The notes beneath the pieces are model-generated. The model searched no databases. It saw nothing but the letters and a program-made list of their open reading frames with translations, and was not told the origin of the DNA. A stretch of DNA of 63,956 bases, counting the filler, from assembly GCA_964501035.1 (NCBI GenBank). It is 16 parts of 16 records of this genome, joined end to end, with 100 filler letters (N's around TTAATTAATTAA, not from the genome) between each part and the next. Parts side by side here need not be neighbours in the genome. Positions count along the whole stretch, not along the records: positions 50,814 to 54,196 come from CAZCRK010000099.1; 15 more parts are not named here. The stretch is one strand, 5' to 3'. Positions 28,456-54,296 of this stretch are shown here, one piece after another (the stretch's first letter is position 1; each line of letters starts with the position of its first letter). The position numbers and the translations under genes were made by a program.

Positions 28456-30453
28456 CTATTCTTCAATGTTAAGAGTCTTGATTTGCTCATATTTCAACTG
28501 GTAATGGTTGTGCCTTTTCTTTTTGATAAATCCAAACTCATCCATTTTATTCAGCCATCGAGTTGTTTTTTTGGTTACATTAGCTGGAGTATCATCTGGG
28601 AATGAGCCTTCCATAAATAAACTAATCTTATGTCTGTCAAAATCTGGTTCATCTGGATTACGTTCAGCGAACTCAATCAAGATTTTGTATTCCCATCTTT
28701 TTTTAACTTGCTCACAATGTAGACTCTCATTCCAAATTGTACCTTCATAATCAAATGTGCAAGTGGATGGATCAAATACTAAGCGTATTGGTTCATTGAG
28801 TAGATCGGTGTAGCCATCTCGCATCTTAGTAATCTTACCACGCCTTACATCAGCACCCATTGATGAGTTACCGATTTGAAATACATTACTTACATAGTTG
28901 GTCAATGTTTTACCGCCAGTAATGATGTTCTTTCCAAGTATAGGTTCTTTGTCGCCCTCATATTTGTTATGATGTGCAACAAGGATAAAAGCATTACGAC
29001 TAACATTTTTTATTTGGTTAAGTATCTTAAGTAATGGCTTTAATTCTTGATTCTTAGATACATCTTTATCGGTACTGGTGTATAGATTGTCCACAATGAC
29101 GACACCATCAGTAAAATCATTATCTTCAAGAGTCTTAGCAATCTTAAGCCAAGCATCTGTGAAAATGAGGTCTTCATCAGAAAGTACACTTGAGTGTAAA
29201 CGATTTTCTGTACCATTCAGATCGTATTTACCAAGCCTATTAGCTAATTGCTCTGAGCTTAATTCAAATTGAATCAGTAAAACTGGTCTTTGGTTTACTT
29301 CCCATCCAATGAAGTTTCTTCCAGATGCAATACAGACCGCCATCTGCAAAATAAACCAAGTCTTACCAACTCCATCTGTTCCTGACACAATGGTAACACC
29401 CTCTTCAACTAATAGATTTTGAATTATTGTTTTAGGCGGATCGGTATATGTTTTAATTAGTTCATTTGGCTCCATTAGTGAAAATCCTTTCGTATCATTT
29501 TTAGTTTTTTGTTTTACTGGCAGCGTGTATTCTTCTGCACCTACTACCGCTTTATCAAATTCACCAAAGATGTCATCCTTTGTAGCATCATCACAAACAT
29601 CATATCCTTTGGGTAATGATTCATCCCATTGTGCAATCTTTACGATAGTATCTGGTGATTCTTTTTTTATTCTTTCAGCAAGTTTCTCTGCGCCCTGTTT
29701 TCCCGGTACATCATTGTCATAGATTATGATGATGGTAGGGAAGACCAGTATCGAAGAAATATCATCTGGTATCTTTCCACAACCACCTGAAAACGTAATG
29801 CCCTGAACTGAACTTATAGACCAATCCTTTTCGCCTTCATAGATTATGAGTGGTCTTTCCTTATTGTATCTCTGGATAGAATCTTCAGCAAAGATTTGAC
29901 AATGTGCACCAATGACCTTTTCATCCTTGTCCTTTTGTCCTTCCCACCAAGGCATTTTCCCATCCTTACTTTTATGGTGCTTAATTGCTTCAGGATAGAT
30001 AAAAACAGTTCTGCCATCATCATCTAATCCGAGGTACTTATGTTTCCATTCTGCTATATCTGATGAGATTTCATTTACCTGATTTCTGTACCTATTTTTC
30101 AGTTTTTCCAACTCTACCATTTTATCGACCTCAAGTACCTGCTTATTTTCCATTTTAAGCGTGGTATTAGACTTATAACCATTAGTTCTGCCATTCTTTG
30201 AGTCTACTATCGATTCTTCTATGTACTGCGTAGGATTAGGCAAATTCAAGCGTTCTGCGAACTGGTAAGTATTGCCACTTCCACACCCTGAAAAACAAGT
30301 CCATAAGCCATTTTCGATAGACCATGAAAGGGATGGATTTTGGTCATCATGGAAAGGGCATAATCCCTGTCCTTGATTTCCTCGATACCTGATTTTTTGT
30401 ATACCGAAATCGAACTCAAAGATTCTTTGATAGTCCATTATCCTTGTAGCCAA
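28456..30453 (-). CDS. Primase-helicase (CHC2 zinc finger + TOPRIM + AAA_25/RepA-type helicase + C-terminal wHTH)
   Basis: CPFHDD..PS...CFSGC zinc finger; EGEKD and YDND TOPRIM; GTDGVGKT Walker A; VIVDN Walker B; LVAHHNK. Confidence 0.88.
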   Translation of the reverse strand: MATRIMDYQRIFEFDFGIQKIRYRGNQGQGLCPFHDDQNPSLSWSIENGLWTCFSGCGSGNTYQFAERLNLPNPTQYIEESIVDSKNGRTNGYKSNTTLKMENKQVLEVDKMVELEKLKNRYRNQVNEISSDIAEWKHKYLGLDDDGRTVFIYPEAIKHHKSKDGKMPWWEGQKDKDEKVIGAHCQIFAEDSIQRYNKERPLIIYEGEKDWSISSVQGITFSGGCGKIPDDISSILVFPTIIIIYDNDVPGKQGAEKLAERIKKESPDTIVKIAQWDESLPKGYDVCDDATKDDIFGEFDKAVVGAEEYTLPVKQKTKNDTKGFSLMEPNELIKTYTDPPKTIIQNLLVEEGVTIVSGTDGVGKTWFILQMAVCIASGRNFIGWEVNQRPVLLIQFELSSEQLANRLGKYDLNGTENRLHSSVLSDEDLIFTDAWLKIAKTLEDNDFTDGVVIVDNLYTSTDKDVSKNQELKPLLKILNQIKNVSRNAFILVAHHNKYEGDKEPILGKNIITGGKTLTNYVSNVFQIGNSSMGADVRRGKITKMRDGYTDLLNEPIRLVFDPSTCTFDYEGTIWNESLHCEQVKKRWEYKILIEFAERNPDEPDFDRHKISLFMEGSFPDDTPANVTKKTTRWLNKMDEFGFIKKKRHNHYQLKYEQIKTLNIEE

Positions 30454-31746: not shown

Positions 31747-31890
31747 ATCCACATATCTACTGTGGTATGTAGCTACACCATAACCCCTGTAAAACTATAC
31801 GCTAATAGGGGGGGGATGACTTTAATCAATAAATGTGGGGGAGAGTAAAGCATATATATAAATCCATACACGTCATAAGAGTACCAATCC

Positions 31891-31925
31891 TCCCACAAAC
31901 AAAAAACCCCGGGTGACCGGGGCTT
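31891..31925 (-). repeat. Hairpin/terminator-like repeat, same family as the 51.5-54.1 kb repeats
   Basis: + strand TCCCACAAACAAAAAACCCCGGGTGACCGGGGCTT; overlaps the stop of a minus-strand gene fragment (...DVTFLQH*, 31924-31965). Confidence 0.85.
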
Positions 31926-50713: not shown

Positions 50714-50813
50714 NNNNNNNNNNNNNNNNNNNNNNNNNNNNNNNNNNNNNNNNNNNNTTAATTAATTAANNNNNNNNNNNNNNNNNNNNNNNNNNNNNNN
50801 NNNNNNNNNNNNN

Positions 50814-51520
50814 GAACTATTTCCTTGAGCAATTTCAAGATCTGCAAAGCGGTAATGGGTGGAATCATTTAAAACTTCCTGAAATACATTGTTTGGCGGT
50901 GCTTCAGCAATATCATCATTTAGATCACCCAAAACGATAACCTTATTGCTTGGAAGATTATTATCTATATATTCTTTTAGAAGATTTATTGCGGTATATC
51001 GTCTGTTTTCTTCATCAGATGAGTCATCGTAATCAAGGATACCATCTCCACAGCATTTAAAATGGTTATTAATTATAAAATAATTTTCGCCCATAAAATT
51101 GAGATCCATTACCATGGGTGAGCGAGGAAATGCATTCCAATATTCTGAAGTGATGTATATCTCGTAGATATCATTGATTTCTACAGTCTCGGTTTTATAA
51201 ACATATGCTAAACCAGCAAACCAATTCGATTCATAGTATCCCAAATATGCTGGTAAAGAATCTAACATTTGGTCAAACATAGCAGTATCATCTAATTCTT
51301 GTATAGCAAGAATATCTAAATCCAAAAGGTTTATAATTTCAGTGACATAATCAATCGTGATTTGATTATTTTTAGGAAACCATTCAATGTTCCAGGTTGC
51401 TATATCCAAAGAATTATCATCTCCAAACGATAGATCTTCCAGGTCTTGAGCAAACAAAGCAGCAACTAAAAAATAGCTTGAAAAGATAATGCTTTTTAAT
51501 ATTTCTCGATAGAATAACAT
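50814..51520 (-). CDS. Secreted endonuclease/exonuclease/phosphatase family protein (3' truncated)
   Basis: IATWNIEWF, LAIQE, NHFKCC, VLGDLND; signal peptide. Confidence 0.85.
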
Positions 51521-51557
51521 AAATACAATTGGAAATGATGCATAAAAATATTTTGCT

Positions 51558-51588
51558 ACTTAACAAAAACCATCACGAATGTGGCGCT
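51558..51588 (-). repeat. Array repeat copy 1 (degenerate short form)
   Basis: ACTTAACAAAAACCATCACGAATGTGGCGCT; overlaps the stop of the Gly-zipper ORF. Confidence 0.6.
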
Positions 51589-51757
51589 ACTCTTCTTCTG
51601 TTGAATCTGGTTCAACACTCGCCTGTGCATTTTTAGTTTGGGATAAAGCAGCACCAATAGCAATCCCAATACCAATCCCTACTCCTAAATTACCAGTTGC
51701 TGCGCCTATTCCTGCACCAATGGCTACTCCAGCAAAAAATCTTAATTCACCTCTCAT
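51587..51757 (-). CDS. Small glycine-zipper membrane protein
   Basis: MRGELRFFAGVAIGAGIGAATGNLGVGIGIGIAIGAAL...; ATG 51757 preferred because the longer ORF starts inside the repeat. Confidence 0.65.
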   Translation of the reverse strand: MRGELRFFAGVAIGAGIGAATGNLGVGIGIGIAIGAALSQTKNAQASVEPDSTEEE

Positions 51758-51774
51758 ATCCAAATCTACCCATA

Positions 51775-51830
51775 ATCCCACAAACAAAAAACCCCACGAA
51801 TCAGCCACAGGCAGACAAGATGTGGGGCTT
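51775..51830 (-). repeat. Array repeat copy 2 (long form)
   Basis: ATCCCACAAACAAAAAACCCCACGAATCAGCCACAGGCAGACAAGATGTGGGGCTT. Confidence 0.92.
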
Positions 51831-51866
51831 TCATAATTTTATTTGATTTTTTAAATTAAGTCAAAT

Positions 51867-52367
51867 TTAATTATTAGGAACGCCGGAATCTTCTAACCAA
51901 CCATATTCAGTGATAAAGCCAACTTCAGCAGTATCACCCGATTGAATACCTTTGTTATATAACCAGGCCCATCTGGAATTATCCTTACGTTGATGCCCAA
52001 TAACACCATGGTAAACATTTTCTACGGAATCAATAATTTCTTCATCAAATGTTATATATACCCAGATTCCATCTACAACTTCTGTTTCATCATCTACATA
52101 GTCTGGGTCATATCCGTTCGGTGGGGTCTCCAGAGCATCAAAAGGATTGGTTGGCCAAGAGCGACGGCCATTTAACATCAGTTGTTCTATTGCATAATTT
52201 TCAAGACCTATGGTTATATCTGAGATCACTTTATCTTCAACTGCTTTTTCTGCTTGAGAGACTGATGACAAGTATTTTGGTATTGCAACTGCCGCAAGAA
52301 TGCCAAGAATGATAGTTACAATTATCAATTCAATTAACGTAAAACCATTGTTTTTAATTTTTAGCAT
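51867..52367 (-). CDS. Type IV pilin / pseudopilin with class III signal peptide
   Basis: KNNG|FTLIELIIVTIILGILAAVAIP prepilin motif (G-1, F1, E5); ATG 52367. Confidence 0.88.
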   Translation of the reverse strand: MLKIKNNGFTLIELIIVTIILGILAAVAIPKYLSSVSQAEKAVEDKVISDITIGLENYAIEQLMLNGRRSWPTNPFDALETPPNGYDPDYVDDETEVVDGIWVYITFDEEIIDSVENVYHGVIGHQRKDNSRWAWLYNKGIQSGDTAEVGFITEYGWLEDSGVPNN

Positions 52368-52562
52368 TGCTCTTTTTCTATTAATACAATATGGAAACAA
52401 TTACTATACCAAAATAATAATTTTCCAAATTATTGCATCATTATATTAACAATAAATCAGATAAAATAATAAATAATTGACTATGTCCAATATTGATACA
52501 TTGTTTCATAATTATACATCAAATTTATCCCTTCCCTTTATTGAAAATATTAACTAAAAACC

Positions 52563-52617
52563 TCACTCAAACAAAAAACCCCACGAATCAGCCACAGACA
52601 GACAAGATGTGGGGCTT
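52563..52617 (-). repeat. Array repeat copy 3 (long form)
   Basis: TCACTCAAACAAAAAACCCCACGAATCAGCCACAGACAGACAAGATGTGGGGCTT. Confidence 0.92.
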
Positions 52618-52639
52618 CTTGATATAGAAATTAATTTTA

Positions 52640-52975
52640 TTATTTTGATGAAACTTTAACTAATCCTTTTGTTACCAGTTCATCTAAACATTTATTAAAT
52701 ATTTCTTTACTTTCAGTTGGGTTAAGGCCTTCTAATGCATCATCTATTATTTTTGAACATTTAAGTTTCACATCTAGTAACTCACCACTTTCTTCACATT
52801 GAAGCTTATAATCTTTTATTTGACTAATAACTGTTTCACCTTTACCAAACTTCTTATTTGAAAACTTTTTTTCAAGTGATAGCATGTTATAAATATAGAA
52901 ATCGTATTTAACGCCATTTGTTATCGTTTTTCTTTTAGTCAGATTTACATCATCATATATTTCACCATCATACAT
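52640..52975 (-). CDS. Hypothetical protein
   Basis: 111-aa ORF with strong AAGGAG RBS. Confidence 0.7.
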   Translation of the reverse strand: MYDGEIYDDVNLTKRKTITNGVKYDFYIYNMLSLEKKFSNKKFGKGETVISQIKDYKLQCEESGELLDVKLKCSKIIDDALEGLNPTESKEIFNKCLDELVTKGLVKVSSK

Positions 52976-53028
52976 AATGTATTCTCCTTATTAATAATTT
53001 GAATCAGTACTTTTGTAAGATGGATAAT

Positions 53029-53241
53029 TTAATTTGGCTCCACATTAGTTGCACATGGACCTTTATCAGACTCCCCTTCTTCATAATTAACTTTCTGACC
53101 TTCTTTTAGTGTTTTAAATCCATCCATTTTAATCTCACTCATATGGACAAACAAATCTTTACCACCATCATTTGGTGTTAAAAATCCATATCCTTTTGAA
53201 TCATTGAACCATTTAACAGTTCCTTCTTTTTTATTACTCAT
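53029..53241 (-). CDS. Cold-shock protein (CspA family)
   Basis: [14 protein letters not shown] (RNP1), LFVHMSEI (RNP2), [19 protein letters not shown]. Confidence 0.95.
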
Positions 53242-53357
53242 TGTACATCTTGCCTATTTTTTAGTTTTATTAGTAATGCTTCGTTAAATATATGATTGGA
53301 ATTCTTTTATAAAATTCAACTATAAATTTAATCTTGCCCCCCCCGAATTTAATCATC

Positions 53358-53393
53358 ATCACACAAACATCAAGCCCCACTTTCGTGGGGCTT
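53358..53393 (-). repeat. Array repeat copy 4 (short form)
   Basis: ATCACACAAACATCAAGCCCCACTTTCGTGGGGCTT. Confidence 0.8.
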
Positions 53394-53413
53394 AAAATCG
53401 TTAAAATAAATAA

Positions 53414-53731
53414 TCAATATTTGATAGCTGTACCATTTACACTTACCATTAACATTGAACCTGTATCACCCAATGTTCCATAATCAATATCTATACCAAC
53501 AACACCATTCGCACCCATTTCTCTTGCTTTTTGATTCATTTCATCAAATGCGATATTGCGAGCTTTACTAAGTTCTTCTTCGTAGGCACCTGACCTACCG
53601 CCAGTAAAATCTTTTATAGATGCTAAAAAATCTTTAACAAAATTTGCGCCTGAAATAGCTTCTCCAGTCACAACGCCTAAATATTCTTTAATTTCTTTTC
53701 CATCTATATTATGCGTAGTTGTGTTTAACAT
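53414..53731 (-). CDS. YbjQ/UPF0145 heavy-metal-binding-domain protein
   Basis: [55 protein letters not shown] before ATG 53731. Confidence 0.92.
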
Positions 53732-53769
53732 ACTTATATTCTCCATTTTATTGATTAAATCTACAAATC

Positions 53770-53803
53770 ATCCCACAAACAAAAAACCCCATGAATGTGG
53801 GCT
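53770..53803 (-). repeat. Array repeat copy 5 (short form)
   Basis: ATCCCACAAACAAAAAACCCCATGAATGTGGGCT; upstream AAATCTAC shared with copy 2. Confidence 0.85.
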
Positions 53804-53816
53804 CTATTACTCATTA

Positions 53817-53978
53817 TCAATCAAATAGATTGAATAAAAGCGCAAAACCTAAAATCCCTATAAATACTCTTTCACTGTTTAACCCTTTTGTAATTGATAA
53901 AATAATTGCGATTCCAATAGATAATACACCTATTAAACTCCAAGGGTTTAATGTTTTTAATTTTTCTAACCATCTCAT
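53817..53978 (-). CDS. Small two-TM membrane protein
   Basis: MRWLEKLKTLNPWSLIGVLSIGIAIILSIT...VFIGILGFALLFNLFD; lies between repeats 5 and 6. Confidence 0.5.
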   Translation of the reverse strand: MRWLEKLKTLNPWSLIGVLSIGIAIILSITKGLNSERVFIGILGFALLFNLFD

Positions 53979-54071
53979 TTTTAAATTTAATAATAAATTA
54001 ACCAAGCCGACACCAGTGAATTCAGTCCAATTCAGCCATTTTTACCACCAAATAGACCAATCTTAGACTAT

Positions 54072-54120
54072 AAGCAAAAAACCCCACGAATACACCACAG
54101 GCGGACAAGATGTGGGGCTT
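54072..54120 (-). repeat. Array repeat copy 6 (long form)
   Basis: AAGCAAAAAACCCCACGAATACACCACAGGCGGACAAGATGTGGGGCTT; 19 nt from the stop of another minus-strand ORF end (54140-54196). Confidence 0.9.
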
Positions 54121-54296
54121 GATGTTCATAGACTATGTATTAATTATAGTTTGTAGTCACAAGATACCTGACATTTGTCTGACTATCGTATTCCTTNNNN
54201 NNNNNNNNNNNNNNNNNNNNNNNNNNNNNNNNNNNNNNNNTTAATTAATTAANNNNNNNNNNNNNNNNNNNNNNNNNNNNNNNNNNNNNNNNNNNN

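Follow-up and report, generated by a model that had tools for sequence, protein, structure and literature searches.

Contig C99 of a marine SAR406 (Marinimicrobia) genome carries an array of unrelated, co-oriented genes, which alternate with copies of a repeat of ~55 nt whose two halves resemble a terminator and a promoter. The window, i.e. the whole stretch of 63,956 nt analyzed here, consists of 16 contigs of one draft assembly (C86–C93, C95–C101 and C113) joined by linkers of the form N...TTAATTAATTAA...N, for example at 50714–50813 and 54197–54296; genes on the two sides of a linker are no genomic neighbours. The entire array is confined to C99 (window 50814–54196, 3383 bp); its apparent neighbours in the window, an HD-domain gene and the atp operon, belong to other contigs. 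The source genome assembly (G000) comprises 1.87 Mb in 167 contigs with a GC content of 33.8%. In the following, G-numbers denote genomes, C-numbers contigs, L-numbers individual loci and f-numbers families, and public sequencing runs were examined as assembled contigs. Read in the direction of transcription, the array leads from a small hydrophobic open reading frame (ORF) over a YbjQ-family gene, a two-gene unit with a cold-shock protein, a type IV pilin-like gene and a Gly-rich small ORF to an endonuclease/exonuclease/phosphatase (EEP) gene. The repeat copies between them are numbered REP1 to REP6.

The consensus of 142 non-identical copies reads CATCAAGCCCCAC-ATTC-GTGGGGTTTTTTGTTTGTGGGATGATGGGTAGATTT and is often followed by ATG, which stands at position +38 in 75–89 of these copies; the 14 positions that follow the 20-mer used for selection are 67–93% conserved. 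Five matches to the hairpin pattern, distributed over 4 sites of which one matches on both strands, stand against 0 in 100 shuffles, and the 23-nt tail gave 4 matches at ≤3 mismatches, one of them on C92 (window 31890–31912), where 0 were expected. Chance is therefore excluded as the origin of the copies. An earlier sequence-only reading of this DNA had listed six minus-strand copies, each 0–36 nt after a stop codon. The spacing holds and five of the copies are clear, whereas the sixth, REP6, is decayed and was recognized by eye; the profile built from the 142 copies did not detect it at E ≤ 1. The gene identities proposed at that time agree with the Pfam matches (PF03372, PF07963, CSD and YbjQ_1), the two-transmembrane and the Gly-rich ORF being without a Pfam match, and the array was rightly set apart from CRISPR and from attC; the RYYYAAC/GTTRRRY ends of attC sites are absent from all copies.

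Table 1 Features of the array on contig C99 and a further repeat copy on contig C92. Positions refer to the window.
Feature	Position	Strand	Description
REP1	54075..54129	-	CATCAAG, hairpin AAGCCCCAC / 24-nt loop / GTGGGG (computed fold), T-run; profile match C99 3262–3316, E 0.036
~80-nt insert	54012..54091	-	separate repeated sequence after the REP1 T-run; matches in L035 and G074:C91
Small hydrophobic ORF	53817..54005	-	62 aa from TTG or 53 aa from ATG at 53978; no Pfam match
REP2	53747..53806	-	short hairpin CCCAC-ATTC-ATGGG, T-run, full tail GTTTGTGGGATGATTTGTAGATTT; profile E 6e-13
YbjQ-family gene	53414..53746	-	PF01906 (YbjQ_1), 1e-37
REP3	53342..53402	-	perfect 11-bp palindromic hairpin, GAAA loop; profile E 0.003, fold z -4.8
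Cold-shock protein gene (CspA-like)	53029..53241	-	long 5' leader; PF00313 (CSD), 1e-28
Hypothetical ORF	52640..52975	-	111 aa; no Pfam match; one unit with cspA, no repeat between
REP4	52568..52625	-	long-loop hairpin, T-run, tail partly decayed (GTTTGAGTGAG); profile E 0.002
Type IV pilin-like gene	51867..52367	-	N-terminal methylation motif; PF07963, 6e-8
REP5	51753..51836	-	long-loop hairpin, T-run, full tail ending TAGATTTGGAT; profile E 2e-11
Gly-rich small ORF	51587..51757	-	56 aa; starts 5 nt after the TAGATTT of REP5; no Pfam match
REP6 (decayed)	~51560..51600	-	by eye: GCGCCAC-ATTC-GTGATGGTTTTTG (GCGCCAC-ATTC-GTGATGG), TTTTTG; weak fold; overlaps stop codon
EEP gene	50814..51520	-	PF03372; cut by contig end
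Repeat copy on C92	31878..31935	-	variant stem CCCCGG-TCAC-CCGGGG; profile E 2e-12

Next, the distribution of the repeat was analyzed. A search with the 20-mer GGGGTTTTTTGTTTGYGGGA against one genome per species yielded at least 133 loci. Among the matches listed, nearly all loci are titled (Neo)marinimicrobiota, and the few other taxa match the 20-mer alone, by chance. Four of the listed loci (L017, L046, L074 and L081) carry the full repeat in bins titled Legionellales, Anaerolineales, Pelagibacteraceae and Pseudomonadota; these are probably Marinimicrobia contigs in wrong bins. Among viral contigs, only one contains the 20-mer. Within the phylum, 92 of 401 genomes carry the repeat, and a reversed-pattern control gave 0 in every genome. 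The repeat-bearing families are concentrated in the class of G000, outside its order (f8 39/44, f10 29/66, f21 4/4, f18 5/10), and among the phylum genomes outside the class a single weak match (1 mismatch) was found. Within the order of G000, 9 of 74 genomes have the repeat, including one whose 104 copies are spread over tiny contigs, and the complete genome of the same genus (G001, 100% complete) has no copy. Counted at ≤3 mismatches, G074 contains 45 copies, G076 20, G077 59 and G078 57. On long contigs, which reach 531 kb and are chromosomal, the copies form several clusters per genome, and their orientation per contig is near-uniform (12/12, 12/12, 10/10 and 10/10 on four contigs). A full-text literature search found no description of the repeat.

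The repeat is also very abundant in the ocean. In four seawater runs (X1, X2, X3 and X6), 482–1467 contigs per run match C99, nearly all of them at repeats, and the summed depth at 51718–51830 and 53752–53864, which hold two full repeats, reaches 5,750–33,000 compared to ~5–20 in most other bins, i.e. about a thousand-fold.

Since the copies of G000 all lie on three small contigs near contig ends (C99, C155 and C92, each with a copy 30–70 nt from one end in a genome-wide profile search), we considered that C99 might be mis-binned or chimeric and the repeat uninformative on this organism. The EEP gene of C99 would fit such an artefact, being closer to G078 (84%) than to the own family of G000 (70–74%), as would the full repeats in bins titled as other taxa. 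However, the GC content of C99 (32.2% vs 33.8%) and its tetranucleotide distance, which ranks 8 among 36 contigs of similar size, fit G000, and a contig from an independent run spans REP4, the hypothetical ORF, cspA and REP3 with 0 differences. Moreover, arrays in long contigs and at L035 show that the phenomenon stands whichever cell owns C99. It is likely, if unproven, that C99 belongs to G000, and an artefact is the least probable of the explanations considered here.

The first half of the repeat has the anatomy of an intrinsic terminator, as a GC stem and a T-run lie just past the stop codon of a co-oriented gene. Gene context was evaluated for 188 non-redundant copies, 145 of them full length. 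At 111/145 full copies the upstream gene is co-oriented and at 13 divergent, and the gap from stop codon to hairpin has a median of 19 nt. The stem is kept by pairing: 87.2% of cells pair compared to 81.7% in shuffles, none of 500 shuffles reaching the observed value, and the two top covarying pairs change from A-U to G-C in 31 sequences and from C-G to G-C in 24. A terminator scan of C99 found 4 sites, 3 of them at repeats, where 1.1 were expected. On this contig GC stem-loop, T-run and location after a co-oriented gene are found together, except for REP3, which has no T-run and a decayed tail, and REP6 with its weak stem. The two halves of the repeat can each occur alone, and hairpin-only copies stand at convergent junctions more often than full copies (7/29 vs 7/145, Fisher p = 0.003). 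Taken together, these features suggest that the hairpin half is a putative terminator of the upstream gene.

The tail half ends in TAGATTT, which matches a box of the host, TA[AG]ATTT. This box is located ≤60 nt upstream of 11/27 tRNA genes of G000, compared to 0.95 expected from the genome frequency, and 11–40 nt before long ORFs it occurs 78 times vs 40 for a control word, a modest enrichment. Because of its enrichment before tRNA genes and ORFs, TAGATTT may represent a -10/-7-type box of host promoters and the tail half a putative promoter of the downstream gene, which is co-oriented at 101/145 full copies and convergent at 7. The conservation beyond the T-run would largely be explained by this resemblance. 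For 32 of the 101 co-oriented genes the start codon stands at +38, 5 nt after TAGATT, as at REP5, the tail of which directly abuts the ATG of the next ORF (51757); other genes start 10–90 nt further, for example the YbjQ gene with GGAG 9 nt before its ATG. As +38 coincides with the expected transcript start, leaderless mRNAs are implied. Two other explanations of the tail were rejected: as coding sequence, its frames close within few codons, and a sigma-70 promoter scan of C99 gave 17 sites vs 17.9 expected, none of them at repeats. Besides that, the TAAATTT box lies 11–37 nt before tRNA genes of G000, in 5 cases with TTTG or TTG 20–21 nt further upstream. The promoters of this genome thus appear to be of the Bacteroidetes type, and this box may help to annotate Marinimicrobia genomes.

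Comparison between genomes revealed repeat-bounded mosaics, in which one gene with its flanking repeats is 93–97% identical between genomes while the flanks are unrelated. For example, the YbjQ block, from the hairpin of REP2 to the 5' arm of REP3, shares 93% identity over 448 nt with G074:C33; the atp genes of G000 and G074 are 74% identical and other genes of C99 71–79%. A third context of the same block was found on the metagenome contig L170 (94%), the one new contig that exact 23-mer scans of metagenomes and genomes retrieved for this cassette. Further blocks with repeats at both ends measure 2.9 kb (95%), 2.4 kb (97%) and 844 nt (95.5%). In a set of 43 non-redundant inter-locus matches (≥250 nt, ≥85% identity), 40 of 60 homology ends other than locus ends fall within 45 nt of a repeat, which accounts for 7.6% of bases (binomial p = 1.5e-30), a control that is generous as intergenic DNA attracts such ends anyway. 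The genes between the repeats are an accessory miscellany of type IX secretion substrates, short-chain dehydrogenases, hydrolases, GNAT, AhpC, YbjQ and cold-shock proteins and many DUFs. The cassette-like architecture proposed by the sequence-only reading is supported by these data, as is its expectation that gene order between repeats is not conserved. No synteny to C99 was found in 40 relatives, in which only the EEP gene (84% to G078:C38, 70–78% to other relatives) and cspA have homologues, on different contigs; G001 matches C99 at cspA only. Likewise, G015:C76 has its own array with 8 copies and other genes, and the 56-aa Gly-rich ORF has an 81% counterpart at L018, there too after a repeat. 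For the two-copy cluster of G076:C4, 25 relatives were screened for an empty site; the region has no conserved synteny on which such a comparison could be based. In the run contigs, joints of ~1960–1980 nt connect two similar repeats and are uninterpretable as junctions, a 223-nt skip (53788 to 54012, sides 30–35 nt) reflects another locus carrying the complete insert described below, and stretches of C99 uncovered in run X3 prove nothing.

To locate the exchange within the repeat, segments were compared for 9 repeat pairs upstream and 7 downstream of common cassettes. In the upstream repeats the 5'-arm region shows no similarity above chance (0.44 vs background 0.61), whereas loop plus 3' arm (0.83 vs 0.71) and tail (0.93 vs 0.84) are above it. 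In the downstream repeats the order is the opposite: the 5' arm (0.79 vs 0.61) and loop plus 3' arm (0.87) exceed chance and the tail (0.74) does not. This half-wise similarity indicates that the upstream gene carries the terminator side along with it and the downstream gene the promoter side. Counted from the first G of GGGGTTTTTT, the switch points are spread between about -7 and +20, an interval that is also the least variable of the repeat. Such variable positions would fit homologous or homology-assisted recombination in the repeat, not cleavage of one bond. A fixed junction CATCAA(G)-CCCCAC at the foot of the hairpin, derived from five boundaries, was weakened by this analysis. The breakpoints expected at a fixed repeat position are accordingly borne out in that homology ends map to the repeat, and not in that a single crossover position exists.

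These data also bear on whether the repeat is a regulatory signal only, i.e. a terminator with a regulon promoter, for instance of secreted or stress proteins, with the mosaics arising from ordinary horizontal transfer and loss. The promoter-like box, the fixed distance to the start codon and the many downstream genes for type IX secretion substrates, whose signal peptides resemble each other, agree with such a role, and homology ends tend to fall between genes regardless. Yet the blocks start and end inside repeats, and the halves segregate with different neighbours, as for exchange in the repeat. In addition, near-identity over ~55 nt, including a spacer that looks non-functional, across the families of a class exceeds usual regulons, and the distribution is patchy in the own family of G000 (4/37 genomes, one of which has 93 copies at ≤1 mismatch). 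We therefore regard a purely regulatory role as unlikely.

A dedicated site-specific system, integron-like or with an HUH or tyrosine enzyme acting on the hairpin, would account for arrays of co-oriented single-gene units, for a hairpin kept by compensatory changes and for the several block boundaries at hairpin foot or loop, among them the 2.4-kb common block of L047, which stops exactly after CATCAA with non-repeat DNA beyond. Furthermore, G000 and G076 encode integron-type integrases (433 bits in G076:C7). The recombinase of such a system would be encoded elsewhere or belong to an unknown family. On the other hand, recombinase-, integrase- or transposase-type Pfam matches were found for 0/145 ORFs in or beside arrays, and the switch points extend over ~25 nt. 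No RYYYAAC/GTTRRRY pair occurs at any repeat; C99 contains one (shuffles 0.67 +/- 1.2). Across the phylum, IntI exceeds the curated cut-off in 86/401 genomes, frequently at the end of a contig, and its distribution by family is opposite to that of the repeat (f8 3/44 vs 39/44, f24 17/26 vs 0/26, f28 16/30 vs 0/30). Of the 96 genomes with an IntI match, only ~5 have the repeat as well, no IntI passes the cut-off in three repeat-rich genomes, and the 20 kb fetched around the integrase of G076 contain no repeat. The integron link was rejected on account of the missing attC cores, the IntI distribution and the lack of adjacency. The sequence-only reading had suspected recombination sites and proposed to look for arrays near a recombinase; the copies form several clusters per genome instead, no such system was found, and neither the IntI nor the Y1_Tnp distribution follows the repeat. 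That idea is probably wrong, and we judge a site-specific system improbable.

Several side observations concern integrases. The single inverted pair of C99, ATTTAAC...GTTAAAT (53211–53289), is perfect and spans the leader and start region of cspA; it is probably a chance match. In G000, contig C31 (L173, 4–570, minus strand) encodes an integron-type integrase that is cut by the contig start (N-terminal 189 positions, 237 bits), and G001 has a complete integron integrase (C2:41–982), also at a contig start. True integrons seem to be common in Marinimicrobia and separate from the repeat.

Copy numbers that are high and very uneven, from 0 to ~100 per genome, could also point to a small, selfish mobile element of the MITE, REP/REPIN or Correia-like kind, which would multiply in intergenic regions and leave the genes unmoved. 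A nested insert of ~80–95 nt and a 20-nt loop insertion common to three copies of C99 would be in line with this view. However, the co-orientation of the neighbouring genes is unexpected for random insertion, and the common blocks hold a gene together with the repeat. Inspection of 140 aligned copies with flanks, by eye only, showed no terminal inverted repeats or target duplications. With respect to transposases, Y1_Tnp occurs in 21/74 genomes of the order and is absent from the repeat-rich G044, G015 and G042, which also speaks against an HUH enzyme acting on the hairpin; it was not found in G074, G077 and G078 either. A RAYT/IS200 link was rejected in view of this distribution, and a selfish element appears highly improbable. 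Short IS200-like Y1_Tnp ORFs exist as single copies, not beside repeats, in G000 (L159, C76: 3–404, 134 aa, contig-cut) and G076 (L158, C5: 1429–1776, 115 aa). A further candidate, DNA-uptake sequences with inverted pairs as terminators, was dropped, since the 1.87 Mb of G000 contain the stem motif at no more than 5 places (6 matches, with one place matching on both strands).

The two insertions differ in location. In REP1, REP4 and REP5 the 24-nt loop consists of the usual ATTC plus 20 nt (54095–54114, 52592–52611 and 51805–51824; see also L144), while REP2 represents the short form; most copies elsewhere have the 4-nt loop. The 20-nt insertion can self-pair (CCACA/TGTGG or GCC/GGC), and its presence in three copies suggests that a repeat variant has spread locally, or by gene conversion, inside a single array. 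The larger insert lies between T-run and tail and stands in place of the usual tail at REP1. It is 95% and 94% identical to two places of L035, there between hairpin and tail of a repeat, and 88% to G074:C91; inserts of ~80–95 nt were located at L035 2068–2167 and 6068–6146 and at G074:C91:103–181. In L035 the insert has TTTTTTG at each side, perhaps as a target duplication. A small mobile insert and an RNA gene are both conceivable; an Rfam scan of C99 at E ≤ 1 gave one sub-threshold, unrelated chance match to a snoRNA. The small contig C92, which bears the end-located copy listed in Table 1, also encodes an ORF of 665 aa that combines a CHC2 primase zinc finger with an AAA_25 domain (C92 459–2456, window 28456–30453, minus strand), a layout that we take to be usual in replication proteins of mobile elements.

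Altogether, we favour the view, with a probability of roughly 60%, that the repeat is a portable terminator-promoter module similar to the promoter/stem-loop cassettes (PeSLs) of T4-type phages, which at the same time offers homology for the shuffling of cassettes. The first half, comprising CATCAAG, the GC hairpin and the T-run, would end transcription of the upstream gene, and the second half (GTTTGTGGGATGATGGG-TAGATTT) would serve as promoter of the downstream gene, the mRNA of which would often have no leader or hardly any. With a terminator and a promoter in each repeat, a gene between two repeats would therefore be an insulated single-gene transcription unit. Because genomes hold tens to about a hundred copies with a near-identical core of 35–55 nt, the repeats could act as portable homology. 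Recombination between two of them, within the genome or with incoming DNA, would replace, add or remove whole units, the upstream part of the repeat staying with the upstream gene and the tail with the downstream gene.

Several points weigh against this interpretation. A homology tract of 35–55 nt is short for efficient RecA recombination, and the crossover sample is small (9 + 7 repeat pairs), with some pairs being non-independent. The data are nearly all metagenome assemblies, in which wrong joins at repeats could mimic mosaics; L035, the record title of which names a single uncultured isolate, also has an array with 9 copies, and this speaks against misassembly, as does the independent run contig that agrees with C99 from REP4 to REP3. 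Furthermore, G000 has just 7 detected copies, all on the small contigs C99, C155 and C92, and the repeat is rare in its family (4/37 genomes). With respect to the promoter, the stricter Bacteroidetes -7 box TAnnTTTG, tried as a candidate, is unenriched before ORFs of G000 (144 vs 127 for the control). The tRNA promoters have TTTG 20–21 nt upstream of the TAAATTT box (by eye), whereas the nearest TTTG in the repeat is 12 or 16 nt away, making this promoter non-canonical. Finally, the strict conservation of the stretch TGGGATGATGGG is unexplained by a promoter alone.

If a terminator-promoter module of this kind is at work, it would offer streamlined uncultured ocean bacteria a simple route to trade single accessory genes, such as those of secreted enzymes, stress proteins and small membrane proteins, with no dedicated recombinase and with each gene keeping its own expression signals. 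It would also explain why metagenome assemblies break in the array regions and why most bins lack them. A further and more tentative step, for which we see somewhat less than even odds, is that Marinimicrobia, which rank among the most abundant bacteria in the dark ocean, maintain a chromosomal gene-cassette economy without an integrase, in which one module both expresses and exchanges the units, across genomes as distant as different orders. Functionally this would be an integron without an integron and the cellular counterpart of phage PeSLs. For a phylum without genetic tools, the repeat is moreover a candidate promoter/terminator part.

Among known systems, REP/BIME elements and REPINs with their RAYTs are short GC-rich extragenic palindromes at the 3' ends of genes, which occur in many copies and partly act as terminators or mRNA stabilisers. 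In contrast, the repeat described here has a single hairpin with a long, asymmetric and conserved 3' tail, is always oriented with the genes, forms no inverted doublets and does not co-occur with Y1/RAYT. Phage morons place an autonomous promoter, one gene and a terminator between other genes. While morons have no common boundary sequence, the boundary itself is the repeated, conserved part in the arrays of Marinimicrobia. Integron cassettes resemble these arrays in that co-oriented, single and unrelated accessory genes are each followed by an imperfect palindrome, that the palindromes are alike within a lineage and that assemblies break there. However, RYYYAAC/GTTRRRY ends, an adjacent or co-distributed IntI and a fixed crossover (G/TT of R' in attC) are missing, there are many clusters per genome, and each unit apparently has its own promoter, in contrast to the mostly promoterless cassettes of integrons. 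The system is therefore integron-like in outcome, and every test of integron membership that was run came out negative.

The PeSLs of T4-type phages are described as small, conserved composite promoter/stem-loop cassettes by accessory ORFs in hyperplastic regions, with promoter and terminator activity shown and with recombination between copies that leads to modular shuffling and also to mini-circles (PMC2839356, PMC4122927). Both elements join a promoter to a stem-loop of terminator type and stand just before small accessory ORFs where the genome is plastic, and in both the insertions, deletions and replacements are bounded by the motif, which for PeSLs is attributed to homologous recombination without a dedicated recombinase. 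The repeat differs in residing on a cellular chromosome instead of a phage genome, in using the host TA[AG]ATTT box instead of sigma-70 TTGACA/TATAAT and in placing the stem-loop always before the promoter at one fixed distance, compared with five arrangements in PeSLs. In addition, its blocks cross genomes with core genes ~74% identical, and its activities are predicted from sequence. Of the systems compared, the repeat stands closest to PeSLs and is, in our view, rather probably a new, cellular variant of the same principle, which would thereby extend from T4-type phages to cellular chromosomes.

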